The notes under the pieces: generated by a model | What the model saw: only the letters and a program-made list of their open reading frames with translations | Databases searched by the model: none | Told to the model about the DNA's origin: nothing | Shown: piece after piece, positions 5,814 through 20,850 of the stretch | Numbering within the stretch: the first letter of the stretch is position 1 | Layout: each line of letters begins with the position of its first letter | IMG/VR virus record: IMGVR_UViG_3300042905_002309 | Span: 32,001 to 96,000 of that record | DNA length: 64,000 nt | Direction: 5' to 3' (one strand) | DNA from: a virus | Taxonomy: Duplodnaviria > Heunggongvirae > Uroviricota > Caudoviricetes | Position numbers and translations under genes: made by a program

Positions 5814-7796
5814 ATGGAGCATACTATGGACTTTAAAACACTTTACAATGAAATATTAACCGAAGGTAAAACCGAACTAGAGAAAATTAAGGAAGAAATA
5901 GCTAAAATTAGTGTAAAATATGGTGAAAAAGCTGCTACTGCCTTGGAAAATTTGTTAGAAGTAGTACAGGCTCATTCAACTGCATTAAAAAGCTTCCAAA
6001 AAAAGACACCAAAACCAACTTTATCTAAAAAAATAGATATAAATAACCCTAAAAATAATAAAGAACGTGAAAAAATTAGTGAGTATAAGACAGCCCTTGT
6101 AGCATATAAAGCTGGATACGAAGATTTACAACACACAAAATTAAATGCTTTAGTTCCAATTTTAGATTCGGTTAAAGCAATTAATGTTCCTGAAAAAGAT
6201 CCGTGTGGATTAGAGTATACCCAAGGGAATTCAAAAGTTGGTGATGATACCATAATCATAAACATGGGACCAGCAACCGTATGTGACTCTGCTAAAGCAG
6301 GTAAATGTGATTTATACTTTTTGGGATTCTGCTATGCTCAAAATAACGAATCTACTCATAAACTCGCTATTGTTAAACGTTTTAGAGAAAAATTACAATG
6401 GAAATTCGGAAATCCTACCACTATAGCTACACAAATTTCAGATGTAATTTTAAAATTAAGAAAACGTGGTGATAAGATTAAATATGTACGTTTTAATGAG
6501 TCTGGTGATTTCGCAACACCTAATGATGCAACACCTAATGATGTCTCTAAATTTGAACAGGTTGTAGAAGAAACAAATAAATTATTAGGGAGTGATCCTG
6601 TTATATTCTACACCTATACACATAGAAGTGATTTATTCGAAACATATAAACCAAAATCTAAAGAACTTATTATTCAAGGATCAGGTAAATTTGGTGAAAC
6701 TGGTAAAGAAAAACCATTTTTTGTTCATAATTGTTTCATGGGTATTGATTATGGTATCGTTGTTAATTTATTAGAGAATGGTAAATTAAATGATTCAGAC
6801 GAATTAAAAACTGCACTAGGTTTACCGCTTGATAAACCTATTAAAAATGTTGTTTATTGTCCCGGTAATTGTTTTGGATGTCTATTATGCAAAACTAAAA
6901 AGGAAGGTGTTGATAATGGCAGGTTAATTTTAGTTATGAATCATGGTATGGGTGCGGAATTAACTAATGCTGTAAAAGATGTTACAAAACAACTTAGAGA
7001 TTTATTCAAACAAAATGCCAATCAGATTTTAAAATTAAATGCTAGTAATATTCCAGACGCTTTAAAAAAGGCTATTTTCTCCACTCAATATTTTCATGAG
7101 AATAGTGTCGTAGAAAAACTTCTTCTTTATACAATGCCTCGTTATAATAATAAAACTAAAGTAACTAAACCACCACTAGTTGATATTGATAGTATATATC
7201 CCTTCATTATGGATATGCGTGAGTCTTTTAAGAAAGAAGTAAAGGCAAATCCTAAATCACAAATTCTTAAAGCAACTAGAAGATTTTTAGACCTTCAAAC
7301 TGGTAAAGCTAGTGACGAAGCTCTATTACAATTTATTGATAAAACTCGACAGAAAATTAAAAGGGGTGAAGTTATTACTGATGTACCAGAAACAAGTGGT
7401 CCCACGGATGTTCCAACGGTTGCAGTGAATAGTAGTTATAAATTAAATGGTAATTTATTAACCGAAGGTAAAAAATTCGATATATCAAAAGTTTCATCAG
7501 TTAATTTGGCTAATATGGCTTTAGATGGTAGTCTTGCTAAATTTAATGGATTCAAAACTGAAAATGATTTATATCCAGACGGAAATCCTGATAAAGAAGT
7601 AGAAGAAACACCTCAACCTGCACCTGTTCAAGCTCCTACAGCTACCGCAATGCCTACTACTCCTGCTACACCTGCACCAACGGCTCCAACAGCCCCTACA
7701 ACAGGTGAAGTTGTAGCAGACAGTCTACGTGTTCAAAAGAATATGCGTAAGATTCTAGGAGAAAAGAAGTGTATTATTTTGAAGAACCGTCTTTAA
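5814..7796 (+). CDS. Large protein with GP88-like Cys-rich domain and Pro/Thr/Ala-rich tail
   Basis: GNSKVG, C..C...CYA, YVRFNESGDF, YTYT, CPGNCFGCLLC...HG; late-type promoter upstream. Confidence 0.6.
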   Translation: MEHTMDFKTLYNEILTEGKTELEKIKEEIAKISVKYGEKAATALENLLEVVQAHSTALKSFQKKTPKPTLSKKIDINNPKNNKEREKISEYKTALVAYKAGYEDLQHTKLNALVPILDSVKAINVPEKDPCGLEYTQGNSKVGDDTIIINMGPATVCDSAKAGKCDLYFLGFCYAQNNESTHKLAIVKRFREKLQWKFGNPTTIATQISDVILKLRKRGDKIKYVRFNESGDFATPNDATPNDVSKFEQVVEETNKLLGSDPVIFYTYTHRSDLFETYKPKSKELIIQGSGKFGETGKEKPFFVHNCFMGIDYGIVVNLLENGKLNDSDELKTALGLPLDKPIKNVVYCPGNCFGCLLCKTKKEGVDNGRLILVMNHGMGAELTNAVKDVTKQLRDLFKQNANQILKLNASNIPDALKKAIFSTQYFHENSVVEKLLLYTMPRYNNKTKVTKPPLVDIDSIYPFIMDMRESFKKEVKANPKSQILKATRRFLDLQTGKASDEALLQFIDKTRQKIKRGEVITDVPETSGPTDVPTVAVNSSYKLNGNLLTEGKKFDISKVSSVNLANMALDGSLAKFNGFKTENDLYPDGNPDKEVEETPQPAPVQAPTATAMPTTPATPAPTAPTAPTTGEVVADSLRVQKNMRKILGEKKCIILKNRL

Positions 7797-7993
7797 AACA
7801 GATTTCCACCAAAAATATCATTAAAAATACTACTATCAACCTTTGGTTCGGGTTTTCTGGCTTCTAAACCCTTATCAAAGGCTAATTTTAAAGCCTTCTT
7901 AAAGCCTTTCTTAGTCATTGTAATGGTTTCAGAATCGTTTCTGAGATTCACGTTCTTATTTTCTATAATAATCCATAATGTTTCAAAGTTCAT
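7793..7993 (-). CDS. Hypothetical protein
   Basis: 66-aa ORF behind TTGACT...TATATT promoter. Confidence 0.55.
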   Translation of the reverse strand: MNFETLWIIIENKNVNLRNDSETITMTKKGFKKALKLAFDKGLEARKPEPKVDSSIFNDIFGGNLF

Positions 7994-8028
7994 GTGAATA
8001 ATATATCACTATTTTTGGAAAAGTCAAC

Positions 8029-8057
8029 AAAAAACCCCAAACCTTTCGGAATGGGGT
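8029..8057 (-). terminator. Intrinsic terminator ending tRNA operon 1
   Basis: ACCCCA-TTCC-GAAA-GGTT-TGGGGT followed by U-tract. Confidence 0.8.
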
Positions 8058-8085
8058 AAAACGACGAATATAGATTGTTTCTAAA

Positions 8086-8159
8086 TGGTGCGGTATGGGA
8101 AATTCGAATTCCCAACAAAACATTGGCAATGTCTTATGTTACCATTACACTAATACCGC
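8086..8159 (-). tRNA. tRNA-Gly(GCC)
   Basis: Cloverleaf, loop TTGCCAA, encoded CCA. Confidence 0.9.
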
Positions 8160-9045
8160 ATAAAAGTTTCTTTATCTGTTCAAAATATTTTAAACCATAC
8201 TGTTCATTAAAATTACCATCTTTAGATACATCAATGGTTATTAATTGTATATTGTTTTTAAGACATAATTCAGATTTAATTTTGTCTTTTTTTATATTAT
8301 TAATTAATCGCTTCTCACCATATATTGGTTTATAATGGATGATGCCGTTAAATTCAATTCCTAATTTATAATCAGGAAAATATAAATCTAGTTCATATGG
8401 ATTTATTATTTTTCTACTATTAAAAAGACATTTGGGTTTTAATGTTGTTAATATTTTATCTTTCAAATATTTCTCTAATTTAGATGTTGACGCATGTTTT
8501 ATATGATGTTGTAAATTATATTTATTTCTGCATGTCATATTACAAAATTGATTTGTTGTTTCCTTTTTGTAAGATTTACGTGTAAATTCTTTATTACAAT
8601 AAGTACAAATTAGTTGTTTTTCGTATACTTTAGTTCGATATTTAGTTCGATATTTACTTGCACACGATTTACTACAACATATTGCATCCTTTTCTCCACT
8701 ATGAAATGATATTTTACATTGTGGACATATTTTATTTGGTAGTTTATTTGCATTAAATTTACCAGAACACGTATGATTACAAAAATGATTATTAGATTTA
8801 ATAAAATCTTTATAAATTAATATTATATCGCAGCCACATTGTTTACATTTAGTGGATATACGATTTTGTTTAAACTTTGCTCTACATGTATTTGAGCAAC
8901 AGTCTAATTTTCTCCCACCAGACAAACAAGATAACACTTCATTTTTTGGTTTATAATAAATGTTATTACATTGTTTACATTTAAGTGGTATAGGATCACG
9001 ACTCTTATAATTTTTTAATTCTTCTATTGTTATTTGTATGTTCAT
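8134..9045 (-). CDS. Putative homing endonuclease: CxxC repeats plus PD-(D/E)xK domain
   Basis: Multiple CxxC/C..TC repeats; ELDLY...GIEFNG..HY C-terminal domain; located inside tRNA array. Confidence 0.75.
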   Translation of the reverse strand: MNIQITIEELKNYKSRDPIPLKCKQCNNIYYKPKNEVLSCLSGGRKLDCCSNTCRAKFKQNRISTKCKQCGCDIILIYKDFIKSNNHFCNHTCSGKFNANKLPNKICPQCKISFHSGEKDAICCSKSCASKYRTKYRTKVYEKQLICTYCNKEFTRKSYKKETTNQFCNMTCRNKYNLQHHIKHASTSKLEKYLKDKILTTLKPKCLFNSRKIINPYELDLYFPDYKLGIEFNGIIHYKPIYGEKRLINNIKKDKIKSELCLKNNIQLITIDVSKDGNFNEQYGLKYFEQIKKLLCGISVMVT

Positions 9046-9062
9046 ATAACTATTTAGTGAAA

Positions 9063-9141
9063 TGGAGCATCAGGCGGGTAACTCTCCCGCTTATATTATC
9101 CACATTGGAAGTGTGGTGCCTCAATTTTAGGCTACTGATGC
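9063..9141 (-). tRNA. tRNA-Gly(TCC), atypical T-loop
   Basis: CCACA-CTTCCAA-TGTGG; T-loop AGAGTTA; CCA. Confidence 0.8.
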
Positions 9142-9147
9142 ATGAAT

Positions 9148-9224
9148 TGGAGCAGTAAGTCAGACTTCCACTGACTAAATGTGAGGTTGCAACTCACCGC
9201 TTCGTGTGTTTTAGCTTTTACTGC
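9148..9224 (-). tRNA. tRNA-Cys(GCA)
   Basis: GTGAG-TTGCAAC-CTCAC; U73; CCA. Confidence 0.85.
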
Positions 9225-9231
9225 ATAAATA

Positions 9232-9306
9232 TGGCGAGTCAAATCGGCTATGCTCCGATATCAAAAGCGCAATAAGCTTCCGTTTTAATGTTTAAACTAT
9301 TGACTC
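9232..9306 (-). tRNA. tRNA-Asn(ATT), atypical
   Basis: GAAGC-TTATTGC-GCTTT; G73; CCA; non-canonical T-loop. Confidence 0.6.
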
Positions 9307-9312
9307 ATAAAA

Positions 9313-9398
9313 TGGCGGGGATGACGGGACTTAAACCCGCATTGCTTTTCAGCGTCACCGTGACAGGGTGATATGTCTATCAATTCCACCACATCCCC
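9313..9398 (-). tRNA. tRNA-Asp(GTC) with long variable arm
   Basis: TCACC-CTGTCAC-GGTGA; G73; CCA. Confidence 0.85.
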
Positions 9399-9404
9399 AA
9401 AAAA

Positions 9405-9480
9405 TGGTACTCGATCACAGAATCGAACTGTGATTTTCTGCATGTAAAACAGAAGTACTAGGCCGTTGTACGAATCGAGC
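9405..9480 (-). tRNA. tRNA-Val(TAC)
   Basis: TCTGT-TTTACAT-GCAGA; CCA. Confidence 0.9.
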
Positions 9481-9486
9481 ATTAAA

Positions 9487-9794
9487 TGGTCGAGAAAAGA
9501 CTCCGCTTTAAGAGGATTTCACTATTGTTCTGTTGGTTCTCCCTTCACTCACGGTGATGGAGCCAACATCTATCTCTCTTCTTAGTCTACCTGCACCTGA
9601 ACTGGTGCTGTTCCTTTAGCCAACTGGATTTCACTGTTGTTCTCTACGTGGAGCCATATATCCCGCTATAGTCGGGGTATGGACATGTATATGATCTATC
9701 AGTTGTGTTAACTATTTTCATGCAATTCTCTAGGGTTTAATCATTATGGAGAACTGCACTAAAATACGTTCAAAGCTAATTAAACTATCTCTCG
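9487..9794 (-). ncRNA. ~308-nt structured RNA with tRNA-like acceptor stem and CCA end
   Basis: 5' CGAGAGA pairs with 3' TTTCTCG-ACCA; D-arm-like hairpin; several internal stems. Confidence 0.65.
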
Positions 9795-9804
9795 AAATTG
9801 GTAA

Positions 9805-9945
9805 CGGATCAAATAATGGTCGTAAATTTCAGGCTTGTTATGATCGTGGTATAGCACTTTGTATTATTGATTCATCTAAACAAAAGTATGTAAAGGAATC
9901 TAATAGTATCAAATTTCTTGATATCATAACTAACATAATAAACGA
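9805..9945 (+). pseudogene. Remnant C-terminus of a PD-(D/E)xK homing endonuclease
   Basis: NNGRKFQAC..RGIALCIIDSSK..Y.KE....FLDIITNII resembles the end of ORF 8134..9045. Confidence 0.5.
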
Positions 9946-9948
9946 AAG

Positions 9949-10022
9949 TAGCGGGTCAATGAGTCGAACATTGAATGTATAGGTTATGAGCCTCACCAGA
10001 AAACCCTTTCTAGCTACCCGCA
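9949..10022 (-). tRNA. tRNA-Met(CAT), initiator-like; CCA not encoded
   Basis: GCGGGT/ACCCGC acceptor with 1:72 mismatch, loop CTCATAA. Confidence 0.7.
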
Positions 10023-10033
10023 AATTCTAAAAT

Positions 10034-10108
10034 TGGTGCCGATAGAGGGAATCGAACCCACGCAAATCTGCTTATGAAACAGACACTCAGCCATTGAGTG
10101 ATATCGGC
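10034..10108 (-). tRNA. tRNA-Met/Ile2(CAT)
   Basis: TCTGT-TTCATAA-GCAGA; CCA. Confidence 0.85.
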
Positions 10109-10115
10109 GTAAAAT

Positions 10116-10198
10116 AATACCAAGTGTCCTGAACCTCTAGACGACTGATGAACTTTCATTCACCAAGATGGATTCGAACCATCGTTTCTCAGTTGATT
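10116..10198 (-). ncRNA. Circularly permuted tRNA-like RNA
   Basis: Order T-arm, acceptor stem closed by GAAA loop, D-arm; ends lie at the anticodon stem. Confidence 0.7.
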
Positions 10199-10273
10199 AA
10201 ACGCAAGTGGTCTACTATTAACCTACAATAGTTTGATCTATCGTTGGAAGTTGCATCCAAACTACTTGCTAAA

Positions 10274-10347
10274 TGGTGGGAACAGAGAATTTCGAAATCT
10301 CATTGCTAGGGTTTCACTCTAGAGTACTGCCTTTGTACGACATTCCC
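10274..10347 (-). tRNA. tRNA-Phe(GAA)
   Basis: CTAGA-GTGAAAC-CCTAG; CCA. Confidence 0.85.
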
Positions 10348-10548
10348 AAAAATCTATAGGTATCGTGTCCTAAAACGCTTACATTTACATGACTTTAAGT
10401 GTCATAATCAACTATCGCTGAAAATCTTCGAAATTCCGCTATAGTTGATTTGGAAATTGGTGTAGTCTCTCCTTACTGCCACTATTGACATGATCAGTGT
10501 ACGGCTGGATGTCATTTCGGGTTAGTTACCGTATCCATTTCTGGAAAT

Positions 10549-10624
10549 TGGTGGAGCAGATGGGAGTTGAACCCACATTATGCCACATTGCAGGTGTGGT
10601 GCATGGCCTTTATGCTACTGCCCC
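10549..10624 (-). tRNA. tRNA-Ala(TGC)
   Basis: G3:U70 pair; loop CCTGCAA; CCA. Confidence 0.9.
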
Positions 10625-10635
10625 ATAAAATATGT

Positions 10636-10700
10636 GCTGGATTTCACGAATGTTCCACCTACCACTCCACTGATCAGGTGGTTGTAAGGTGTCTATCAGC
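10636..10700 (-). ncRNA. Small three-way-junction RNA module
   Basis: GCTG-ATAGA-stem-GAA-CA(TTCG)TG-AAATC-CAGC; same module occurs twice in the 308-nt RNA. Confidence 0.55.
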
Positions 10701-10704
10701 GTAA

Positions 10705-10761
10705 CAGACTAGTATGTTTTTTTCTTAATAATAGAATTTTTTTGTTTGCTGGAACTAGTCT
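10705..10761 (-). ncRNA. CAGCAA stem RNA (minimal copy)
   Basis: AGACTAGT/ACTAGTCT stem followed by TCCAGCAAAC. Confidence 0.6.
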
Positions 10762-10767
10762 AAATTG

Positions 10768-11067
10768 TTAAATGTCCGAAGCTTCTCTTGTGCGTCTATA
10801 ATCTTGGCTTCTTACATTGTTTTCTTCACTGGTTTGAAAATGGCTCGATACTGTTTCAACCTTCCATCCATTATCATCACCAATTCTTAAATACTTTCCT
10901 AAGATTGCATACTTTGCAGGTATGTAAGCTACTTGTGTAGCATTTTTCTTAGAGAGTGTGCATTGTTTGTAATCATTCTTCATGATTTGTCTTCTGATTG
11001 TTGTAGTGTCACTATCTTCATAGGGACTTCTTAAAACATTGTCAGGTGTACTTGGATAAACTTTCAT
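10768..11067 (-). CDS. Hypothetical protein inside tRNA operon
   Basis: 99-aa ORF with AG-rich RBS. Confidence 0.6.
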   Translation of the reverse strand: MKVYPSTPDNVLRSPYEDSDTTTIRRQIMKNDYKQCTLSKKNATQVAYIPAKYAILGKYLRIGDDNGWKVETVSSHFQTSEENNVRSQDYRRTREASDI

Positions 11068-11093
11068 AATTACTTTCTTTCTTTGTTAAAAAA

Positions 11094-11168
11094 TGGCACC
11101 CGATAGGGGTTTCGATCCCCTTTCTAGAGTTTGAAGGACTCCTATCCTAGCCAGTAGACGAATCGGGT
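11094..11168 (-). tRNA. tRNA-Glu(TTC)
   Basis: GGAGT-CCTTCAA-ACTCT; G73; CCA. Confidence 0.85.
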
Positions 11169-11177
11169 GTGTTAAAA

Positions 11178-11252
11178 TGGCACCTCATGAGGGTATCGAT
11201 CCCTCTCCTACAGATTGAGAATCTATCGACCTAGCCACTAGTCCAATGAGGT
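11178..11252 (-). tRNA. tRNA-Glu(CTC)
   Basis: ATAGA-TTCTCAA-TCTGT; CCA. Confidence 0.9.
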
Positions 11253-11259
11253 ATTAAAG

Positions 11260-11348
11260 TGGTGCATCTGACAAGAGTTGAACTTGTATTTGCCTAACGG
11301 CCTTTTGGGTTCGTAGCCCAACGTGCTAATCCATTACACTACAGATGC
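11260..11348 (-). tRNA. tRNA-Arg(ACG) with long variable arm
   Basis: TTGGG-CTACGAA-CCCAA; CCA. Confidence 0.85.
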
Positions 11349-11355
11349 ATAAAAA

Positions 11356-11431
11356 TGGTGCAGACACTAGGATTTTAACCTAGAACAAGAGGATAGGAAC
11401 CTCACATGATGTACACTTTCACCATGTCTGC
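11356..11431 (-). tRNA. tRNA-Arg(CCT)
   Basis: GAGG-TTCCTAT-CCTC; CCA. Confidence 0.85.
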
Positions 11432-11437
11432 ATGAAA

Positions 11438-11513
11438 TGGCGCAGATACCAAGATTCGAACTTGGAATTAAAGGGTAGAAACCTATCGTGATAGTCCGTT
11501 TCACTATACCTGC
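11438..11513 (-). tRNA. tRNA-Arg(TCT)
   Basis: AGG-TTTCTAC-CCT; CCA. Confidence 0.85.
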
Positions 11514-11521
11514 ATTAAAAT

Positions 11522-11597
11522 TGGAGCCAACAGTGACAATCGAAGTCACAGCCTTCACATTACCAATGTGATGTTCCGCCACTTGAACTATGTTGGC
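11522..11597 (-). tRNA. tRNA-Thr(GGT)
   Basis: TCACA-TTGGTAA-TGTGA; CCA. Confidence 0.9.
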
Positions 11598-11602
11598 AAA
11601 AA

Positions 11603-11679
11603 TGGTCGGTCTGGTGGAAGTCGAATCCACATTATACTGGTTAAGAGCCAGTTCTATATGCCTTTCTAGTCACAGACCG
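11603..11679 (-). tRNA. tRNA-Lys(CTT)
   Basis: ACTGG-CTCTTAA-CCAGT; CCA. Confidence 0.9.
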
Positions 11680-11684
11680 ATAAA

Positions 11685-11759
11685 TGGTGCTCCTATTGGG
11701 TATCGAACCCACTTCCCAAGGGTAAAAGCCTCGTGTTAATCCACTACAACTCTAGGAGC
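11685..11759 (-). tRNA. tRNA-Lys(TTT)
   Basis: CGAGG-CTTTTAC-CCTTG; CCA. Confidence 0.85.
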
Positions 11760-11769
11760 GTAAAAAAAT

Positions 11770-11849
11770 TGGTGCGCCGAGTGAGAATTGAACTCACCTC
11801 GATCAATGTATAAGATTGAGCTAAATGCTACCAGCTTAGTTTTCGGCGC
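11770..11849 (-). tRNA. tRNA-Ile(TAT)
   Basis: TCAAT-CTTATAC-ATTGA; CCA. Confidence 0.85.
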
Positions 11850-11853
11850 AAAA

Positions 11854-11931
11854 TGGTCAGCTAGGTCAGACTTGAACTGACAATATTCCTGTATCCAAAA
11901 CAGGTCGCCTACCAATTGGCATCACTAGCTG
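11854..11931 (-). tRNA. tRNA-Pro(TGG)
   Basis: CCTGT-TTTGGAT-ACAGG; C1:G72; CCA. Confidence 0.9.
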
Positions 11932-11944
11932 ATTAAAATTATTT

Positions 11945-12046
11945 GTGGTCTATCCCCACCGTCAAATCAATGCTGGTTCACTTTAATCCTGTTGACCAGT
12001 AAATTCACCTATCACATCAGGGTTCGTAGGTGAAGATGTATTGATT
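11945..12046 (-). ncRNA. Structured intergenic RNA
   Basis: AATCAAT/ATTGATT closing stem, two hairpins with complementary loops, 3' GTGG/CCAC hairpin. Confidence 0.5.
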
Positions 12047-12050
12047 AAAT

Positions 12051-12127
12051 TGGTCGGAGTAACAGGGATCGAACCTGCATGACTTATGGGCCCAGGCCAT
12101 ACGCTTCGCCAATTAAGCTATACTCCG
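12051..12127 (-). tRNA. tRNA-Pro (loop CCTGGGC; TGG, possibly GGG register)
   Basis: CGGAGTA acceptor, TATGG/CCATA stem; CCA. Confidence 0.8.
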
Positions 12128-12133
12128 ATAAAA

Positions 12134-12210
12134 TGGTCGGCTATGGTGGTAACGATCCACCCTTCTCTGTGTATCAGACAGAAGTAATCAAACCTATATA
12201 CTAATAGCCG
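12134..12210 (-). tRNA. tRNA-Ile(GAT)
   Basis: TCTGT-CTGATAC-ACAGA; CCA. Confidence 0.85.
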
Positions 12211-12216
12211 ATAAAA

Positions 12217-12309
12217 TGGTGGCAATAGTAGGAATCGAACCTACCGTGTTTACCCGAAGGGAACAGATTTACAGTCTGCTACGACACAACCAATAGTCGT
12301 CTTACTGCC
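12217..12309 (-). tRNA. tRNA-Tyr(GTA)
   Basis: GCAGA-CTGTAAA-TCTGT, class II variable arm; CCA. Confidence 0.9.
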
Positions 12310-12314
12310 ATAAA

Positions 12315-12525
12315 AGGTTTTACTATGAATTCCTAGAAGTTTCCTTCATTAAAAAAGTCATTGGGATTAGAACGCTTCCAATCAGCGGTTGAATTCTCGA
12401 CTCTAACTGTGATTCAACAGACCTTATCTATTGAATAACATTCAACTTCTCACCGAATGAGGTTGAACTTAATCAACCCCTCTTCTACGAGATTTACTAA
12501 GGTTCCCCAACGCATCAGGGAATCC
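12315..12525 (-). ncRNA. Structured non-coding region at 5' end of tRNA operon 1
   Basis: Series of hairpins, no ORF. Confidence 0.4.
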
Positions 12526-12677
12526 TTTAAACAATCTATATTCAGTTTTCAAATATCTTCACAACATCTTTTAGCGTTGTAGGCACTTTCGCACCATTTA
12601 TTAACAGCCCCATCGTCGCTGTTAACCTTGGATACCGTTCTTGTATCCTAACCGTTATAATATCAAGTCTATAAACG

Positions 12678-12704
12678 AAAAAACCCACCGTTTTACTGGT
12701 GGGT
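12678..12704 (-). terminator. Attenuator terminator upstream of tRNA operon 1
   Basis: ACCCACC(A)G-TAAAA-CGGTGGGT plus U-tract; 5' arm can alternatively pair with GTGGGTGT in the leader ORF. Confidence 0.8.
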
Positions 12705-12725
12705 GTGTGATCCTAATGATCCTAT

Positions 12726-12815
12726 TTAACACCCACTACAACCTGCATCAAAGCGTTCTATCGCCTTGGGCATCGGTTTCACAGTTCCTCTATAAATTTC
12801 ACAAACTCTATTCAT
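12726..12815 (-). CDS. Leader peptide 1, MNRVCEIYRGTVKPMPKAIERFDAGCSGC (in-frame upstream ATG at 12830)
   Basis: Between TATAAATA (12835-12842) and the terminator; codons match operon 1 tRNAs. Confidence 0.7.
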   Translation of the reverse strand: MNRVCEIYRGTVKPMPKAIERFDAGCSGC

Positions 12816-12869
12816 AACTTCTCTCTTCATTAACTATTTATAACAATCATATCACTTTTCTACAGAAAA

Positions 12870-13004
12870 TCAAGAAATATTTTCAACTTTCTTTTTACAT
12901 ACGGAATTCACTGCATATCTTATACAATTTCCGCACACTCTTCTGCCCTTGTTCCTTAGTAATTTTCTCTTACATCTAGAACAATGTACGTATCTCGTCT
13001 TCAT
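12870..13004 (-). CDS. Small basic CxxC/CxxC protein
   Basis: MKTRYVHCSRCKRK...VCGNC; TTGACT promoter upstream. Confidence 0.4.
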   Translation of the reverse strand: MKTRYVHCSRCKRKLLRNKGRRVCGNCIRYAVNSVCKKKVENIS

Positions 13005-13058
13005 TGTTAATAACTTATCATGACACTCACTGGAAGTCAATAGGTATTTTGAAAATTG

Positions 13059-13496
13059 TTAAATAGATTTCTTTCGTTTGGGTGTTTTAGGTTCTTGTAC
13101 GGGTTTTTTATAATATACACCATGTATCATGATTAATCTATTTCGTATTGGACTTTTAGGATCGTTTGCCCATTTAAATAAATCTTCGATGCTGTATTTG
13201 TCGATAGGATATCCTTTTGAACACCAAGCATACAATGGTTCAATGATATCCAATGCTGTACCATCTTCATGAACTCTTTTAATCTCACCATTATGTATTC
13301 TTTCGACAACTTTTACACAATTTTCAAAAAACGCTAAATGTATGTCATAATAATCATCTACATGTTCTGGATCAAATAAACCCCGTTCTCCTGTAGCATT
13401 CCTTTTACTTGGTGGATTCTTTTTAAGATAATCTACAATATATTTCAAAGTATGTAAAACTGTTGTATACATCGTTGTTTCTTCTAATGTATTCAT
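13059..13496 (-). CDS. Hypothetical protein
   Basis: 145-aa ORF. Confidence 0.6.
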   Translation of the reverse strand: MNTLEETTMYTTVLHTLKYIVDYLKKNPPSKRNATGERGLFDPEHVDDYYDIHLAFFENCVKVVERIHNGEIKRVHEDGTALDIIEPLYAWCSKGYPIDKYSIEDLFKWANDPKSPIRNRLIMIHGVYYKKPVQEPKTPKRKKSI

Positions 13497-13909
13497 ATAT
13501 TACTCCCTACATTCGTCTTTAGTTGTCCTGTATACGCAGGATCAAGCTTGTGACGTTGGGCTGTCTCTCGTTCTACAGCTTTATCATGTGCATCATTGTA
13601 ATCCATCTTTGGATCAGCCTTCATTAATGATCTTTCATATACTTCGTGTTGAAAATTAAACCACATTTCCTTACGATCTTCCATCTCTTCTACCCAAATC
13701 TCGTCTTTAGGTACGTAGTCATAAACATATCCGTGTCCCCCTTCGACAAAATCAACATTAATATTTGAACGAACAAAATCACCATTTACAATGTATACGT
13801 TTACACCTTTAGCAATCTTGCTGTAGTTTGGCGAAAAGTGTTTCCAAGCTTGTTTTCCCGCTACCTTGGCATAATCTTTGAAATTCTTGAATGTGTGTTT
13901 AGTTTCCAT
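13493..13909 (-). CDS. Hypothetical protein
   Basis: 138-aa ORF; DFVEGGH...HEVYER...AH possible metal ligands. Confidence 0.65.
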   Translation of the reverse strand: METKHTFKNFKDYAKVAGKQAWKHFSPNYSKIAKGVNVYIVNGDFVRSNINVDFVEGGHGYVYDYVPKDEIWVEEMEDRKEMWFNFQHEVYERSLMKADPKMDYNDAHDKAVERETAQRHKLDPAYTGQLKTNVGSNI

Positions 13910-15023
13910 TTGGCTCCGGTGTCTTTTGTTTTAAAATATCAGCAGTAAGGCTTCTTACAAGAGATTTAATTCTATTGATATCATCTGATGCATCTACATT
14001 GACAAACGCTGTATAAATTTTACTCAATATCTTTCGATATAATGGCTCATTCTTCTTGAAATTATCAAGATACTTATACATCCACTCCAATGTACCACGT
14101 TGTTTGCTATTATGGTATAAGAATCTATCACGATTAACAACCTGACTATAAAAGTCTTTCTTTGTCATATCTGAATGATAGGTGTAATACATATATTGTA
14201 ATCTACGAATAAAACTAACTAAATTTGTGTAATATTCGATTGGTCGCTTAACATGTTCAACTCTTCGTGTACCTTCTGTCTCTTGTGCGATTAATTTTGG
14301 TTTTCTTCCTAATGATGGTATTTTCATTAGGACTTTAGAAATAGCTTCTTCGGCTGATTTAGCAGATATTACGATAAGTTTGTTATTATATGCAAATGAT
14401 TGTCCATCCTTTTGCATTTCTGGTGTAGTTATTGTCCATTTCTTCAATTTATCAATCTTATAACCACGCATAGTGACATCAGTAGGTAACATCTTTCTTG
14501 ATGGAGTACCACCAATATGCTTTTCATACTCTTTAATTGACATATCTGGTAATAAACCCTTTTTAATCTTATAAGTCACTATCAAATACTGAATATAATG
14601 TAATAATTCATGTTCAGTTACATGTAATAGAAGTTCTGTTAAATTACTGTTTAAACTGATAGTAATATAACCTACACCATCTTTGATATTCTTTCCAAGG
14701 TCTTTATTTTCAGGATTAGTTTTAGTGAAAAAACTATCTTCATATTTATTGTTATTAATTAAGATGATATGAGGGTTTATTTCGTTCAAAAAAGCCCAAT
14801 TAGTGCCACTGAAATCAATAGCAAAATCTTTATTAGGAAAGGATTTACCTGAAAGCCGTTTAATACCTTCCCCTCGCACTTTCTTATAAGAGGCTATGAT
14901 TTGATCTTCAATATCCTTAAAAACATGCTTTGCGAGTGATATTGTCTCTAGTAGTATAGTCTCATCTAGTTTTGTAAAAATATTAAACTTAATCATGTAA
15001 CTATTTATACACAATTCGGACAA
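13899..15023 (-). CDS. Hypothetical protein with HExxH motif
   Basis: EHELLHYIQ; probable start MIKFN after TATAAATA. Confidence 0.6.
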   Translation of the reverse strand: MSELCINSYMIKFNIFTKLDETILLETISLAKHVFKDIEDQIIASYKKVRGEGIKRLSGKSFPNKDFAIDFSGTNWAFLNEINPHIILINNNKYEDSFFTKTNPENKDLGKNIKDGVGYITISLNSNLTELLLHVTEHELLHYIQYLIVTYKIKKGLLPDMSIKEYEKHIGGTPSRKMLPTDVTMRGYKIDKLKKWTITTPEMQKDGQSFAYNNKLIVISAKSAEEAISKVLMKIPSLGRKPKLIAQETEGTRRVEHVKRPIEYYTNLVSFIRRLQYMYYTYHSDMTKKDFYSQVVNRDRFLYHNSKQRGTLEWMYKYLDNFKKNEPLYRKILSKIYTAFVNVDASDDINRIKSLVRSLTADILKQKTPEPNGN

Positions 15024-15292
15024 ATATAAGACATTTTTTTACCATGAAAAATCCAACCTACCCTAGCAGCTTCTTTCCAAGTGGTTTCTCGCTTACACCC
15101 CCCACAAAGAATCATGAAATTAGACGATAAAACCTCATCATAAACCAAATTTATAATGTTTTTATCCACTTTAGGTTTTGTAAGAAGTTTCTTGGATGTT
15201 TTCTTACAAGGTTTTGTCTGAAATTGTGCTTCTTTTTCAGACAAAACCTCAGAGTTAATTAAATTCAAAAGACTGTTTAAAGAGTCATTCAT
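15005..15292 (-). CDS. Hypothetical protein with C-terminal CxxC pairs
   Basis: CGGC...CPNC. Confidence 0.55.
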   Translation of the reverse strand: MNDSLNSLLNLINSEVLSEKEAQFQTKPCKKTSKKLLTKPKVDKNIINLVYDEVLSSNFMILCGGCKRETTWKEAARVGWIFHGKKMSYICPNCV

Positions 15293-15293
15293 T

Positions 15294-15797
15294 TTAATCG
15301 TGTTCTACTTTACATTCCAAGGTTTTCTTAATCTCAAATAAGTAATACATACAGATACTCTTTAAAAGATCAGGAACATCACAGATAGAGTTATGCATAG
15401 ATGAATCGCCAGTTAAGATGATATCTCCGTTATAAAATTTAGTTTGAATACGATAATACTGATTCAAAATATCTGTCACAAGTTCTGCATCAGGTTGGAC
15501 ATACTGATATCCACCAAGTCCACTATCTTCTTTTAATGCTTCCAATCTAGCGATTAATGTGGTAAGTTGTTCTGTCTCGCGTCTAAAATGTTTACCCATT
15601 AATTCGTTTCCCATAATATCTTTACGTCTATCGGTAAAGCGTTCAATCAAACTTTCTGGTTCAAAATAATCATACTGAAATTCTTGTGCAATTGACTCAC
15701 AAAAATCCATTATATTCACATCGTGAATACGTACAATATAACTTGCACTTGAACTGTTACTTACAAAACCGTTTCTTAATTTCATGATCTCTCCCAA
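15294..15797 (-). CDS. MKxRxGFVSNSSS-family protein
   Basis: MKLRNGFVSNSSSASY; probable start ~15785. Confidence 0.7.
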   Translation of the reverse strand: MGEIMKLRNGFVSNSSSASYIVRIHDVNIMDFCESIAQEFQYDYFEPESLIERFTDRRKDIMGNELMGKHFRRETEQLTTLIARLEALKEDSGLGGYQYVQPDAELVTDILNQYYRIQTKFYNGDIILTGDSSMHNSICDVPDLLKSICMYYLFEIKKTLECKVEHD

Positions 15798-16030
15798 TTT
15801 ACTATATCTTCTTCGACTCCAATGTTCACTAAAAATTCACGCATATCAAAATTATCCATAGAAGTATAACCTTCTACTGTGTGTGTTGTAACAGTAATAG
15901 TCCAAGGATTGTCATTAGTATGATCTGAATGATTCACAATATCAACTAATTGTTTAGCTGTAATCTTTATTAAAGGGATTACAAAGCTACTTGAGCTACT
16001 ATTACTTACAAATCCAATTCTTATTTTCAT
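15782..16030 (-). CDS. MKxRxGFVSNSSS-family protein
   Basis: MKIRIGFVSNSSSSSF with GGAG RBS (shorter than ORF-track call). Confidence 0.7.
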   Translation of the reverse strand: MKIRIGFVSNSSSSSFVIPLIKITAKQLVDIVNHSDHTNDNPWTITVTTHTVEGYTSMDNFDMREFLVNIGVEEDIVNWERS

Positions 16031-16031
16031 A

Positions 16032-16226
16032 TTATCTCCAAATTCTCCTATAACCATCAACGGGAAACATCTGTCTAAAAATTCTTTTTGGTGCAGTTTC
16101 AATATCTCTATGATAAAGCATTGAGAATATACAGAATTTACCAATAAAATACTTATATACAACGCCACTTAAAGGATACATGAAGATTGCGGGTACATAC
16201 CAAACCTTTTCTCGTGTTCTTTTCAT
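16032..16226 (-). CDS. Hypothetical protein
   Basis: Fills gap between neighbours with overlapping start/stop. Confidence 0.45.
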   Translation of the reverse strand: MKRTREKVWYVPAIFMYPLSGVVYKYFIGKFCIFSMLYHRDIETAPKRIFRQMFPVDGYRRIWR

Positions 16227-17059
16227 GTTTGACTCCTTATTAATTCTATAATATTTGGTGGTGTATAATATTTTTTGAGTTTACTTAAATCCATAATACT
16301 ATTTACCAAATGTAATCCTTGTTGTCTACGTATTTCTTCAATACTGATAATCTCTTTCTTCATTCCCATCAATAATCCGATTTCATGCATACTGACATAA
16401 CCATCACATGCCACATTATAGGCTCCTGTGCATTCATTATCAATCAAAATCTTAATCGCTTTTGTTAATATTGTAACATTGGTTACACTGTCCTTTTCGT
16501 CACACAACTTATCAAAGCGTTTTATTTTGTTTAGTAAATTGTTTTCACGAGCACTAAAATCAAAAAATAATCTTGGTCGTATAATCAAATCTCTGTCAAA
16601 ATCACAACCCTTTTCGCCATGCCATTTTGTTAAGGTGTAATTACAATGTGCGGAAAGAAAATCTGTCTCCTTTTGTGGTGTATCGTTTCTGTCGTATAAG
16701 CAACCAGTTGAAATCTGTACAAATTTCTTATTACCACCATTGCACCATTGACTTAAAACCTGTGGAATAACAGCATTACTAAAAAATGCCTCATTATAAT
16801 TCTCTTCACAATATCTAGTATTACTCTTCGCAATACAATTTATTACCACATCAAATTTATCTAATTTTCTTGCCATATAAAACGGAAATTCTAATGAATC
16901 GTTTATTTGGATTTGTGATAAATTGAACCTTTCCTTATCAAGAACCGTATAATGAAGTTTTTCGAACTCATGTCCTAAATACCCCGAACCTAATACTACA
17001 ACTTTATTCATACTTACTTCTCCATATGTATCGTTTTTCGACAAAGAATTTCCTGACAA
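16223..17059 (-). CDS. NAD-dependent sugar epimerase/reductase (RmlD-like extended SDR)
   Basis: VVLGSGYLG, VINC, ISTGC, YxxxK (YTLTK). Confidence 0.85.
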   Translation of the reverse strand: MSGNSLSKNDTYGEVSMNKVVVLGSGYLGHEFEKLHYTVLDKERFNLSQIQINDSLEFPFYMARKLDKFDVVINCIAKSNTRYCEENYNEAFFSNAVIPQVLSQWCNGGNKKFVQISTGCLYDRNDTPQKETDFLSAHCNYTLTKWHGEKGCDFDRDLIIRPRLFFDFSARENNLLNKIKRFDKLCDEKDSVTNVTILTKAIKILIDNECTGAYNVACDGYVSMHEIGLLMGMKKEIISIEEIRRQQGLHLVNSIMDLSKLKKYYTPPNIIELIRSQT

Positions 17060-17205
17060 AACATTTTTACTGCATCAGGTGCTTTATTAAACTCATCTAC
17101 AGCCTCATCATATAACCATTTTGTTAAGTATTGTACCTGTGATCCATTTTTATAGACCACTACATAAGATTTAGATTCAATAAATTCTTCTACTTTTTGT
17201 TTCAT
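17014..17205 (-). CDS. Hypothetical protein
   Basis: 63-aa ORF in operon. Confidence 0.5.
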   Translation of the reverse strand: MKQKVEEFIESKSYVVVYKNGSQVQYLTKWLYDEAVDEFNKAPDAVKMFCQEILCRKTIHMEK

Positions 17206-17555
17206 ACTGTTATAATCTCCTTACCACCTTTAATACCTTTACGTATAGTGTCCTCAGTTCCCCCTGTACGATCATCTGATACTACAGCCAATATCACATC
17301 AGCATCATCAGCTATTAACCCATTACGTTGGAAACCAGCACTCTTTCCATACTTTCGCCAATCAGCGTAATGTATTCTGATAGGAATGTCAAGATGTTTT
17401 GCAATAATTTCAGCAAATCTATCTCCACCTTGTGGACATCCTCCGCTACACAAAGAGTCTCCCCTGCGATAAATCTCTAAGAATTTATTCAAACAACGTT
17501 TGAAATCTTCTGGTGAGTTTTTACGTCTAGAACCGATTATGCCGATTACTTTCAA
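17202..17555 (-). CDS. SLOG-family protein (DUF2493/YspA-like)
   Basis: IIGSR, SGG..GGD, ADW..YGKSAG..RN, GT. Confidence 0.8.
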   Translation of the reverse strand: MKVIGIIGSRRKNSPEDFKRCLNKFLEIYRRGDSLCSGGCPQGGDRFAEIIAKHLDIPIRIHYADWRKYGKSAGFQRNGLIADDADVILAVVSDDRTGGTEDTIRKGIKGGKEIITV

Positions 17556-17845
17556 TCATACTCCTTAATAGAAACACCGGGAGATTCCATTCCAGTAAAT
17601 CGTGTATCACCTTCTGGTATACATACGGGACAAGCTTCGTCATGTGCATAATCTGGACAAATACAAACTGGTGGACGTTTATTCCAAACTTCAATAGCTT
17701 GTTCATCTGTAGTAAACCATACACCCGCACCCAAAGAACCACCACATTGTTTCTCGTCTATACAACTTACAAACTTCTCACCAAAACCACCAGTGAAGAC
17801 TTGTGCTTCACCACCACAAAACGGACAAGGAAAAATTTTATTCAT
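17552..17845 (-). CDS. Lar-like zinc-finger protein
   Basis: PCPFCGG...C...C...AIEVWNKR. Confidence 0.7.
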   Translation of the reverse strand: MNKIFPCPFCGGEAQVFTGGFGEKFVSCIDEKQCGGSLGAGVWFTTDEQAIEVWNKRPPVCICPDYAHDEACPVCIPEGDTRFTGMESPGVSIKEYD

Positions 17846-17875
17846 GTAAATATCATACCAGATTTATTAGGATTG

Positions 17876-19009
17876 TCAACCATTATAATAATCAGTTAAC
17901 TCACCCTTATAATTCTCAATAACAACATTCACACCTTCTACACTTTTAATGTAGTTGTAAATAATAGGTATCTTTCCACCACCAGCGGGTAAGTCTACAA
18001 CTAATTGAGGTATAGCATATCCACTAATATTACCTCTAATGCTTTTAAAAATCTCAATACCCTTCTCAATAGTTGTTCTAAAATGACCTGAACCAGTTAC
18101 CTTATCACAAATGTATGTATAATAAGGCTTTACACGTATTTTTAATAACCCTGTGAATAATTTTTTAAGGGTTTCACTATCATCATTAACATCTTTCAAT
18201 AATACTGTCTGACTTCCTAAAGGTATACCTGCATCAGCCAATCTATTACAAGCTTCTTGGGTTTCTGGTGTCAATTCACTAGGATGTGTGAAATGTAGAC
18301 TCATAAACAATGGATGATATTGTTTTAACATGTCAGTTAATTCTTTTGTAATACGTTGAGGTAATACAGCAGGAATTTTTGTACCAATTCGAATCATTTC
18401 AACATGAGGAATTTTACGTAAATTTGAAAGTATCCATTCTAAGGTTTCTGTTGGTAAAGTTAAAGGATCACCACCAGAAATTAACACATCTCGTATCTCT
18501 TTATGTTCTTCGATGTATTTAAGTGACTTCATCCATTGTTCTTTAGTATATGTTTTATCTTTACCAACCATACGTGATCGTGTACAATACCTACAAATGG
18601 TGCTACAATAGTCTGTAACGAGAAATAATACTCTATCTGGATATCTGTGTACCAAACCATCTACAGGGCTTTGGTTGATCTCATGAAGTGGATCATCTTG
18701 TTCACATTGTGAGATGATATGTTCCTCATCGGAAGGCATTACTGTTTTTCTTAGCTTATCACCCAATATGGATGCATAATAAGGAGTAATACCCATAGGA
18801 AATTTGTAATTATTATCAGTAGTATCGATAATTCGGTTTCTTAATTGCCATCTCCAATCATTCCATTCAACATAAGGTACACTTGGATAGTTTTGCTCCA
18901 TAAACCCATGTGTTATTGGGCCTATGGGCATACTACTCGGAGGCTTATCTGATTCTTCGGAACAACACTCAACAGCTTCAACCACATCGACGATTTTTTC
19001 ATTTTGCAT
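17876..19009 (-). CDS. kamA: Lysine 2,3-aminomutase-family radical SAM enzyme (KamA/EpmB-like)
   Basis: WNDWRWQ, HRYPDR, CSTICRYCTR, SGGDP, QTVLL..VND, GGGKIP. Confidence 0.9.
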   Translation of the reverse strand: MQNEKIVDVVEAVECCSEESDKPPSSMPIGPITHGFMEQNYPSVPYVEWNDWRWQLRNRIIDTTDNNYKFPMGITPYYASILGDKLRKTVMPSDEEHIISQCEQDDPLHEINQSPVDGLVHRYPDRVLFLVTDYCSTICRYCTRSRMVGKDKTYTKEQWMKSLKYIEEHKEIRDVLISGGDPLTLPTETLEWILSNLRKIPHVEMIRIGTKIPAVLPQRITKELTDMLKQYHPLFMSLHFTHPSELTPETQEACNRLADAGIPLGSQTVLLKDVNDDSETLKKLFTGLLKIRVKPYYTYICDKVTGSGHFRTTIEKGIEIFKSIRGNISGYAIPQLVVDLPAGGGKIPIIYNYIKSVEGVNVVIENYKGELTDYYNG

Positions 19010-19092
19010 ATATATAATATTTTTACTTCCCTTAAATGTATTTAGGTATATTAACCTAAAATTCTTGAACTTTTTTAATGTATCATAAATAG

Positions 19093-20172
19093 ATGAAAAT
19101 TACAAGGTATTTGATAAATACTTATATGAATATTTTTCGTACTCTATATGAACAGATACTTTTTGAAGCACTTTGGGACTCTGATGCAGTAAATACCGGA
19201 GATTCCCCATTCTTAGGGAATGTGTATCGTGTTTATGAGTTGGAATACAAGCTTCAAGCCCTAAAACGCTCACAATTAGGTATATCTAATCCTAAAAGAT
19301 TGGAAAATATCACTAGACAAGTACAATTAGAACTTGGTTCTGCTGGTATGGCACTTAAACAAATTTTATTGAATACTTTTGCGCTTTGGTTACAACAACA
19401 TGCTTTAACTAAACCTCAAATTTGGGCAGAAGGACGTTATAATACATTTACGGAATCTGGTGACGATGATCCAAATACAATGATGGAAGGTATTGTTGGT
19501 GAATATAGTAGATATGCTACTGGTGGTAAAGTTGATAGATATGGTGTACGTGCGATGTTATCTGTTGACCAATTCTTTCCAATAATCGATAAAAATTTAA
19601 AAAATCTTCCATACACTAAATCCGTTCTTGATTCTGTTTATAAAATTTACATGCAAGAAGAATATGATAATGATCCAGAAGGTACTATGGAACGTTGGGG
19701 GATATCTACACCAGAAGAAGCTGATCAACATATTGAAACATCTACTTTAGATCAAGATGGACTTGAAGGTATGGTATATGACATGGAATCTTTAATGGGG
19801 ATTATAGAACAACATGGAGAGTTATCAAAATTCTTCATTGAACTTTATGCGAAACTTGTTTTCCCTGTTTGGTTTGCACATTGGAAGGCTCAAGGTATCG
19901 TGGAAACTCGTAAACGTGTTCAAAATGTTTATAATAATCTTAAAAAAGCTTCTCCAAAGGATTTGGGTAATCTAGTTGCATGGCTTAGTGCAGCTTTAAA
20001 TACTGCTCATCAATCTGGTTCAATGTTAGATTTTGTTCCAGAAGATGATAACTTCTCTGTAAACATTGATGGCGCAGAAGATACCTATTATGCAAAAGAT
20101 TTATTAGATGCTGTAACAGATGGTAAATTCAATGACCAATGGGATAAAGAATTAGCCGAAGCTGGTGTGTAA
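19093..20172 (+). CDS. Hypothetical protein, possible internal head protein
   Basis: Probable start MNIFRTLYEQILFEA after late-type promoter. Confidence 0.6.
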   Translation: MKITRYLINTYMNIFRTLYEQILFEALWDSDAVNTGDSPFLGNVYRVYELEYKLQALKRSQLGISNPKRLENITRQVQLELGSAGMALKQILLNTFALWLQQHALTKPQIWAEGRYNTFTESGDDDPNTMMEGIVGEYSRYATGGKVDRYGVRAMLSVDQFFPIIDKNLKNLPYTKSVLDSVYKIYMQEEYDNDPEGTMERWGISTPEEADQHIETSTLDQDGLEGMVYDMESLMGIIEQHGELSKFFIELYAKLVFPVWFAHWKAQGIVETRKRVQNVYNNLKKASPKDLGNLVAWLSAALNTAHQSGSMLDFVPEDDNFSVNIDGAEDTYYAKDLLDAVTDGKFNDQWDKELAEAGV

Positions 20173-20195
20173 AATACTGAATATTTGAAAAGTGT

Positions 20196-20355
20196 TTAGT
20201 TATTCGATCATTGCTTTCTGAGATAGGATTCGAACCTACATTTTGTTTCCGCACCCAATGACAGGCGGCATGTGTTAATCCACACACAGCAGAGTTACCC
20301 GTAGTGTAAACGGGAGTTACCGCAGGGTAAGCCAGTTCCCCCACTCATTAACTAA
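20196..20355 (-). ncRNA. tRNA-like structured RNA without CCA
   Basis: TTAGTTA/TAACTAA closing stem; D-arm-like segment; canonical GTAGG-TTCGAAT-CCTAT T-arm. Confidence 0.55.
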
Positions 20356-20358
20356 AAT

Positions 20359-20434
20359 TGGTGCGCCTAGAGGGACTTGAACCCCCAAAACTCAGCTTCT
20401 TAGACTGATATGTATGCCATTCCATCATAAGCGC
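20359..20434 (-). tRNA. tRNA-Leu(AAG), short variable loop
   Basis: TCAGT-CTAAGAA-GCTGA; CCA. Confidence 0.85.
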
Positions 20435-20444
20435 ATAAAACGAA

Positions 20445-20601
20445 TTCTAAAATAATATGGAGTCTGCACCACCACTAAGACCAAGTTAGTCTATTTTCGG
20501 TGTACTATTCGCAACCTTTTGTGAACCGTGTCGTCAATGTTCTTCAACATCCCGTAGTACGTTTCTTCCACGCTTAAATAACTTCGCTAACTATTTTAGA
20601 A
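20445..20601 (-). ncRNA. ~157-nt structured RNA
   Basis: 10-bp terminal stem TTCTAAAATA/TATTTTAGAA exactly filling a tRNA spacer. Confidence 0.5.
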
Positions 20602-20603
20602 AT

Positions 20604-20679
20604 TGGTGCTAGTGGTGGGACTTGAACCCACAAACAACAGATTTTAAGTCTGCCCGATAAGCCGTTCTCGTACACTAGC
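20604..20679 (-). tRNA. tRNA-Leu(TAA), short variable loop
   Basis: GCAGA-CTTAAAA-TCTGT; CCA. Confidence 0.9.
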
Positions 20680-20685
20680 GTAAAT

Positions 20686-20761: not shown

Positions 20762-20767
20762 GTTAAA

Positions 20768-20843: not shown

Positions 20844-20850
20844 ATAAAAT

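Follow-up and report, generated by a model that had tools for sequence, protein, structure and literature searches.

Codon-sampling leader ORFs as candidate attenuators of two tRNA operons in a T4-like phage

In a T4-like phage that carries two tRNA operons, the small ORF preceding operon 1, together with the antiterminator and the terminator at its end, is probably a ribosome-mediated attenuator of the trp style that gates read-through from promoters further upstream into the tRNA genes. Several components of such a device are found in this leader, namely an upstream ORF on the same transcript, codons matched to the operon, a terminator, and a mutually exclusive antiterminator that a ribosome could mask, and from them we infer that stalling of the ribosome would regulate the read-through. 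A second leader in front of operon 2 has the complementary codon choice and is used here as a control. This reading had been put forward in an initial annotation made from the letters of the DNA by themselves; our analysis supports it, and no computational test that was able to dismiss it did so. To our knowledge, little is known about the control of tRNA arrays in large phages, and full-text searches of papers outside subscription journals brought up none that deals with tRNA genes attenuated by leader peptides, and none on boxA in the tRNA arrays of phages.

The phage, its tRNA operons and their leader regions

The window analysed here is a stretch of 64,000 nucleotides that covers bases 32001-96000 of a 248,016-base IMG/VR phage record, and its features are collected in Table 1. 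The phage is T4-like, with Gp23 capsid and Gp20 portal domains present, and has a G+C content of about 33%. Compared with cultured phages, its capsid protein shows an identity of only about 34%, and near-identical DNA occurs in 22 metagenome runs, from lake or freshwater.

Table 1. Features of the two tRNA operons and of the regions in front of them (positions in the window unless marked otherwise)
Feature	Position	Strand	Remarks
Sigma-70-like promoter, TTGACT-17 nt-TAAGTT with TG upstream	13012-13040	minus	from sequence, putative; precedes both small ORFs
Cys-rich small ORF, CxxC...CxxC	12870-13004	minus	44 codons; upstream of leader ORF 1, co-transcribed
TATAAATA, T4-type late-promoter-like motif	12835-12842	minus	19 nt before ATG 12815; function here inferred
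Leader ORF 1	12726-12815	minus	29 codons + stop; ATG 12815, TAA 12728-12726; reads MNRVCEIYRGTVKPMPKAIERFDAGCSGC
Segment 1, AACGCUU in codons 20-22	12751-12757	minus	weak pairing with GGGUGUU at the ORF end (MFE fold of 12672-12760)
Segment 2, antiterminator 5' strand GUGGGUGU	12729-12736	minus	last codons of leader 1, reaching the stop codon
Segment 3, ACACCCAC	12699-12706	minus	common to the antiterminator and the terminator 5' arm
Intrinsic terminator 1	12704-12678	minus	7-bp stem (5 G-C), 8-nt loop, T run; ACCCACC-8 nt-GGTGGGT, hairpin at 12704-12683
boxB-like hairpin GGUGC-GAAA-GUGCC	12582-12595	minus	aligned with bacterial 16S-23S spacer elements
boxA-like 20-mer GATATTTGAAAACTGAATAT	12538-12557	minus	before operon 1
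tRNA operon 1	12309-8086	minus	21 tRNA genes, 20 anticodon species, tRNA-Tyr first (ARAGORN, Rfam)
Leader ORF 2, MKTSLQNSTTWSNLLHKR	22686-22742	minus	18 codons + stop; complementary partner, used as control
Terminator 2	22632-22660	minus	12-bp stem; 5' arm can pair with AAGGUCAGG (22687-22679)
Sigma-70-like promoter, TTGACA-16 nt-TGaTAAAGT	22617-22590	minus	putative; between terminator 2 and boxB-boxA
boxB-like GCGAAAG	22575-22569	minus	before operon 2
boxA-like 20-mer	22560-22541	minus	before operon 2
tRNA operon 2	22389-20359	minus	16 genes, 14 species
tRNAs with A at anticodon position 34	9232-9306, 20359-20434, 21952-22029; genome 192358-192438		

Among the tRNA genes of operon 1, tRNA-Phe(GAA) was detected only by Rfam (36.8 bits) and by ARAGORN under relaxed settings, and no tRNA-Cys was found with ARAGORN or Rfam in the operon or elsewhere in the 248-kb genome; a weak tRNA-like stretch at 10161-10232 on the minus strand (24.9 bits) was rejected as a candidate for tRNA-Cys, its acceptor stem being broken. 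Operon 1 therefore serves 14 amino acids. Of the earlier statement that leader 1 uses all 15 amino acids served by its operon, 14 stand and Cys has to be withdrawn, so that the three TGT codons of leader 1 are outsiders in the same way as its AGT codon. Moreover, tRNAs for Asn, Val and Thr are present in both operons, and the split of the genetic code between the operons is thus only partial.

Some minor features of the tRNA regions were observed as well. The 3' CCA is encoded in all 19 operon-1 tRNA sequences printed by ARAGORN. A degenerate tRNA-like stretch at 9948-10022 (minus strand), seen at a relaxed threshold only, has a CAU-like anticodon loop. An A at anticodon position 34, which is unusual in bacteria, occurs in Asn-ATT, Leu-AAG, Val-AAC and a weak Gly-ACC, and the tRNAs of another phage contig (G007) include Pro-AGG, Gly-ACC and Cys-ACA. 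Two ORFs of 303 and 99 aa without a Pfam match lie within operon 1 on the minus strand (8134-9045 and 10768-11067). The 18-mer AGAACAATAGTGAAATCC is present on the minus strand in three copies (9514-9531, 9626-9643 and 10639-10656), two of which precede tRNA genes (tRNA-Val and tRNA-Ala) by about 15-35 nt. Between both operons, at 16223-19009, one gene is RmlD/epimerase-like and another, a radical-SAM gene, is similar to lysine 2,3-aminomutase.

As for the region upstream of operon 1, a Pfam search with the 56-aa, TTG-start version of the Cys-rich small ORF gave no match, and for leader ORF 1 an alternative start at ATG 12830 would give 34 codons. Leader 1 ends 21 nt before terminator 1, and a spacer of 370 nt separates the terminator from tRNA-Tyr. 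For the motif TATAAATA in front of leader 1, 20 of the 66 genomic copies lie 0-60 nt upstream of an ORF of at least 80 aa, and the motif is thus a marker of gene starts in the phage; CTAAATA precedes leader 2. With regard to ribosome binding, AGGA or AAGG stands before about 40% of the long ORFs of the phage, neither leader start codon has a good Shine-Dalgarno sequence, and ATG 12815 has only the purine-rich GAAGAGAGAAG.

Codon coverage of the two leaders

The match between the codons of each leader and the tRNAs of its operon is far beyond chance. With codons assigned to operon anticodons under conservative wobble rules, leader 1 covers 18 of the 20 tRNA species of operon 1 in 28 codons, using one or two codons for each sampled species (null mean 11.2, P = 2e-5 under phage codon usage), and leader 2 covers 11 of the 14 species of operon 2 in 17 codons (null mean 4.5, P = 1.7e-5). 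Stop-free windows were then scored in all six frames by a sliding scan of the whole 248-kb genome. Windows of 24, 26 and 28 codons that score 18 for operon 1 all lie at 12729-12824, those of 28 codons being 5 among 131,574 genome-wide, all at leader 1; in the 14-codon scan, a single window, TSLQNSTTWSNLLH in leader 2, attains 11 for operon 2, and in the 17-codon scan leader 2 is tied with three other places. Bonferroni correction for the windows of the upstream intergenic stretches (86 to 126 per stretch) gives bounds of 7e-4 to 8e-4 in the case of operon 1 and of 5e-4 to 3e-3 in that of operon 2. Moreover, each leader favours its own operon: leader 1 covers 18 species of operon 1 against 3 of operon 2 (hypergeometric partition test, 7.7e-5), and leader 2 covers 11 species of operon 2 against 4 of operon 1 (1.0e-3). 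The initial annotation had argued against coincidence, and the genome-wide maxima at both leaders and the partition tests bear this out. Its statement that the leaders split the code as the operons do holds for the own-operon coverage and has to be restricted for Asn, Val and Thr.

Resampling of synonymous codons gives P = 0.047 for leader 1 and P = 0.023 for leader 2, which means that part of the match resides at the codon level. An amino-acid set test for leader 1 alone with Cys dropped (24 of 28 residues) is not significant (P = 0.23), and the absence of L, Q, W and H from this leader, which was noted earlier and is evident from its sequence, has P = 0.014; the signal of leader 1 is therefore its coverage of tRNA species plus the absence of these residues. 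The isoacceptor codons that had been listed for leader 1 (ATT and ATA, AAA and AAG, AGA and CGC, GGA, GGT and GGG, AAT, and ACT) are all present, GAG and AGG are absent as described, and the Thr codons of leader 2 are indeed ACG and ACA.

The position of the codons that do not match is also of note. Ser AGT had been regarded as the sole outsider of leader 1, sitting at the antiterminator; there is in fact a single Ser codon (AGT), and as S27 it lies in the antiterminator strand, but the three TGT codons are outsiders too. In leader 1 the outsiders C26, S27 and C29 lie within the antiterminator strand, and in leader 2 the outsiders K17 and R18 come directly before the stop codon; that is, outsider codons are placed where sensing is impossible or where the structure is constrained. 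These facts bear on the alternative that the ORFs are translated and act in cis in ways other than as tRNA sensors, for example by Rho shielding or RNA stability, or that their peptides act in trans, with a terminator that is constitutive and leaky. Such roles would leave unexplained why the tRNA species sampled by each leader belong to the operon behind it, those of the second operon being avoided, and why the non-matching codons cluster in segments engaged in RNA pairing. They would agree with the existence of read-through RNA (see below), with the three Cys codons of leader 1 next to a Cys-rich ORF, and with the expectation that single codons would be poor sensors, and taken together we hold this alternative to be quite improbable.

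Competing RNA structures and read-through RNA

The segment GTGGGTGT at the end of ORF 1 (12736-12729) and the segment ACACCCAC (12706-12699) are exact reverse complements of each other, just as the initial annotation had it in pairing the stretch before the stop codon perfectly with the 5' arm of the terminator. In the nascent leader-1 RNA (first 64 nt), these segments form an 8-bp helix with a folding energy of -17.4 kcal/mol, and in the MFE fold of the full leader-1 RNA (-22.8 kcal/mol) the terminator is formed and codons 20-22 pair weakly with the end of the ORF. For leader 2, when the terminator is incomplete in the nascent RNA, a 9-bp antiterminator joins the terminator 5' arm to AAGGUCAGG, a segment overlapping the stop codon; the full RNA folds into the terminator and a long hairpin of the sampled codons with the stretch after the stop (-33.3 kcal/mol), and this 1:2 hairpin has z = -5.2, with none of 200 shuffles folding as well. 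The antiterminator and terminator pairings are mutually exclusive in both leaders, and the folding of both conformers that had been proposed as a check thus finds each of them in each leader. Among the 14 strict terminator-like sites of the genome, terminators 1 and 2 have the longest upstream complements: the longest Watson-Crick complement is 8 for terminator 1 versus at most 5 for the other 13, and that of terminator 2 reaches 9 with G-U pairs allowed.

Ribosome masking was also simulated at equilibrium with the complete terminator, and at every ribosome position the MFE fold retains the terminator, with no switch. It follows that any switch must be kinetic, and classical leader-peptide attenuators are likewise kinetic. 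The alternative pairings and the weak ribosome-binding signals would also suit an RNA-only switch, in which alternative hairpins answer a factor or the speed of the polymerase and the ORF is incidental; however, the codon-level statistics require a reading frame, and an Rfam search of 7000-24000 at E values up to 1 returned no match besides tRNAs, with neither the T-box covariance model nor any other riboswitch family matching, so that we regard a switch of this kind as very improbable.

If leader 1 works as an attenuator, a ribosome keeping pace with RNA polymerase would stand at the stop codon and cover GUGGGUGU, by which the terminator hairpin would form and transcription would stop. If the ribosome were delayed at any of the sampled codons, roughly codons 2 to 22, GUGGGUGU would stay uncovered and could pair with ACACCCAC ahead of the synthesis of the terminator 3' arm; with the antiterminator formed, the polymerase would read on into operon 1. 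Past terminator 1, the polymerase would meet the boxB-boxA element and become resistant to termination through the untranslated tRNA array of about 4 kb. The net feedback would be that slow decoding by a sampled tRNA species leads to more phage tRNA, and leader 2 would exert the same control for the complementary tRNA set of operon 2.

Sequence cover of RNA is available for the critical stretch. Two contigs from two lake metatranscriptome runs of one study cross terminator 1: the first (X23 record 21) covers 12253-13013 (761 nt) and extends from beside the predicted promoter, where its upper end is 13013, to inside tRNA-Tyr, and the second (X24 record 25) covers 12556-12807, both giving sequence cover only, with strand, ends and levels not included. 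The same RNA runs have zero cover on 13219-14400 and 15025-16500, both of which are covered by the DNA runs, and hence the contigs look like RNA and not like carried-over DNA. Since they bridge terminator 1, operon 1 is not transcribed solely from a promoter downstream of 12678, a situation which the initial annotation had named as speaking against its reading. For operon 2, the cover in the RNA runs is thin and no contig lies over terminator 2, which counts neither way. Within operon 1, the gap between tRNA-Met and tRNA-Val (9494-9813, minus strand) has an RNA contig depth of 48.6, the highest of the region, and it folds well (z = -3.2) with no Rfam family matched; it may be an abundant structured RNA.

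It should also be considered whether the terminators simply mark an ordinary boundary between transcription units, such that the leaders are unremarkable mini-genes whose unit ends there, the operons use their own promoters and boxB-boxA, and the codon match is a product of chance. A sigma-70-like promoter does follow directly after terminator 2, the contig G007 has the same promoter-hairpin-boxA-tRNA-Tyr layout with no leader, the Shine-Dalgarno sequences are weak, and the equilibrium fold always terminates. Yet the promoter scan finds no sigma-70-like site of at least 9/12 between terminator 1 and the boxB-like hairpin, and the RNA contig spans 13013 to 12253 across this interval; the exact 8-bp antiterminator is unique among the 14 terminator-like sites; and a chance match is at odds with the coverage of both leaders, which are genome-wide maxima for their own operons, as well as with both partition tests. 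An ordinary boundary is accordingly rather unlikely in our view.

Several findings count against the attenuator reading itself. Most species are sampled by a single codon, versus the codon runs of classical leaders, the three Cys codons have no phage tRNA, and the Shine-Dalgarno sequences are weak; the terminator persists in the equilibrium fold, a strong sigma-70-like promoter follows the terminator of operon 2, and the leader is lacking in the distant relatives as well as in G007 (see below). Control of the tRNA operons by leader and terminator is probably not exclusive, given the location of the operon 2 promoter after the terminator and the boxB-boxA downstream in both operons. Possibly the leaders gate late transcription, with downstream promoters giving unconditional early expression.

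The putative boxB-boxA element, known attenuators and other phages

Between each terminator and the first tRNA of its operon there is one copy of the 16-mer core TTTGAAAACTGAATAT, these being the two copies in the 248-kb genome, and both are preceded by a GCGAAAG hairpin. The combined pattern of hairpin and box has 6 matches in metagenome collections and 4 in genome collections; it adjoins tRNA-Ile and tRNA-Ala in 6 of 6 metagenome contigs, and in both contigs scanned with Rfam it is located between tRNA-Ala and the 23S rRNA gene, as part of the spacer element that we take to be the one named boxA. When phage and bacterial elements are aligned, the stem of the GAAA loop covaries around an invariant GCGAAAG, and the box is invariant over the 16-mer. 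Compared with the gamma-proteobacterial boxA consensus GYTCTTTAANA, as given in PMC5725501, the bacterial copies agree at 9 to 10 of 11 positions and the two phage copies at 8 of 11. In our reading the phage has borrowed a boxB-boxA element, putatively for antitermination, of the type found in rRNA operons. In common with the rRNA boxB-boxA (NusB/NusE/NusA/NusG/SuhB) and lambda nut, it has a GAAA-loop hairpin and then G-A/T-T-N-TTTGAAAA; unlike the rRNA boxB-boxA, it is phage-borne, precedes tRNA arrays and lies downstream of a putative attenuator terminator. The occurrence of boxB-boxA after both terminators is new here, and the presence of this host-like element beside the leaders suggests that the antitermination machinery of rRNA operons is borrowed by phages to serve their tRNA arrays.

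Leader-peptide attenuation is a property of amino-acid operons, with trpL, hisL, leuL, thrL, pheL and the multivalent ilvL as examples, and also of synthetase genes. The phage leaders resemble the trpL type in having a short ORF whose codons would report the supply of charged tRNA, an intrinsic terminator close downstream, and an antiterminator that has one strand in common with the terminator and would be hidden once a ribosome stands at the stop codon; in leader 2 the trp-like 1:2 / 2:3 / 3:4 layout is complete. They differ from it in being phage-borne, in that the genes regulated would be tRNAs and not biosynthetic enzymes, and in using one or two codons for each of 18 species, versus runs of one to three amino acids. 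Moreover, the 1:2 helix of leader 1 is weak, so that absence of translation would give read-through and not termination, unlike in the trpL type. Among the systems at synthetase genes, pheM (pheST) and the T-box riboswitches likewise sense the state of tRNA and act by premature termination, with the differences that pheM senses one amino acid and that T-boxes, which lack an ORF, act through direct binding of uncharged tRNA.

A wider proposal is that the phage measures the decoding capacity of the cell species by species through two complementary sampler mini-genes, each probing almost all tRNAs of its operon, and that a shortage of any of these lets the polymerase into an rRNA-style antiterminated tRNA array, for example when a sampled tRNA is depleted by the host or by a defence nuclease; we regard this as plausible and just short of probable. 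If true, it would constitute a supply-and-demand feedback loop for viral tRNAs, and a leader that takes a single sample of every encoded tRNA would represent a new design principle, namely a broad sensor of decoding capacity in place of a sensor for a single amino acid. It would further explain how phages match their tRNA supply to demand, or how they respond to depletion of host tRNAs. Because the two operons and the two leaders act as mutual controls, this phage is the sharpest and cleanest test case.

In other phages the sampler-leader design was searched for with largely blank results, and hence it is not universal. A blastn search of phages with 12300-13500 revealed no close relative, nor did IMG/VR scans seeded with neighbouring proteins of 145 and 374 aa or the metagenome search, and a 20-mer scan of IMG/VR gave two matches that were discarded as chance hits in a repeat protein. 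In the distant relatives G001-G005, whose capsid proteins are 60-74% identical, the tRNAs are scattered and a comparable leader is absent, and the coverage scan found nothing in T5, KVP40, Aeh1 and Bxz1. In G006, which has 32 tRNAs, the array is preceded by an ORF that uses all 20 amino acids but is not a coverage maximum. The contig G007 (L178 3461-3640) has a sigma-70-like promoter, a hairpin, GATATTTGAAAACTGAATA and tRNA-Tyr as the first tRNA of the array, with no leader ORF and no terminator; it shares its box and its first tRNA with operon 1, and thus tRNA arrays can run without a leader.

In the Caulobacter phage phiCbK (JX100813) the signals are weak: two mini-ORF windows equal the genome maximum, against chance expectations of 0.56 and 0.18 windows. 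As this phage is culturable, it offers a possible bench system. At 49540-49780, the 45-aa ORF MFALSHNSLSTKAASPASLSLAPLATATKPSTKPTTSASHSTDHL, rich in A, S, L, P and K, precedes Pro, Lys, Leu, Ala and Ser tRNAs, and at 51341-51500, the 32-aa ORF MSKTYRQFVRQIQVVRNIRAGRSRMADEGFRD, rich in Q, F, V and I, precedes Phe, Val, Ile and Gln tRNAs. Each of these mini-ORFs is directly followed by a hairpin and a T run.
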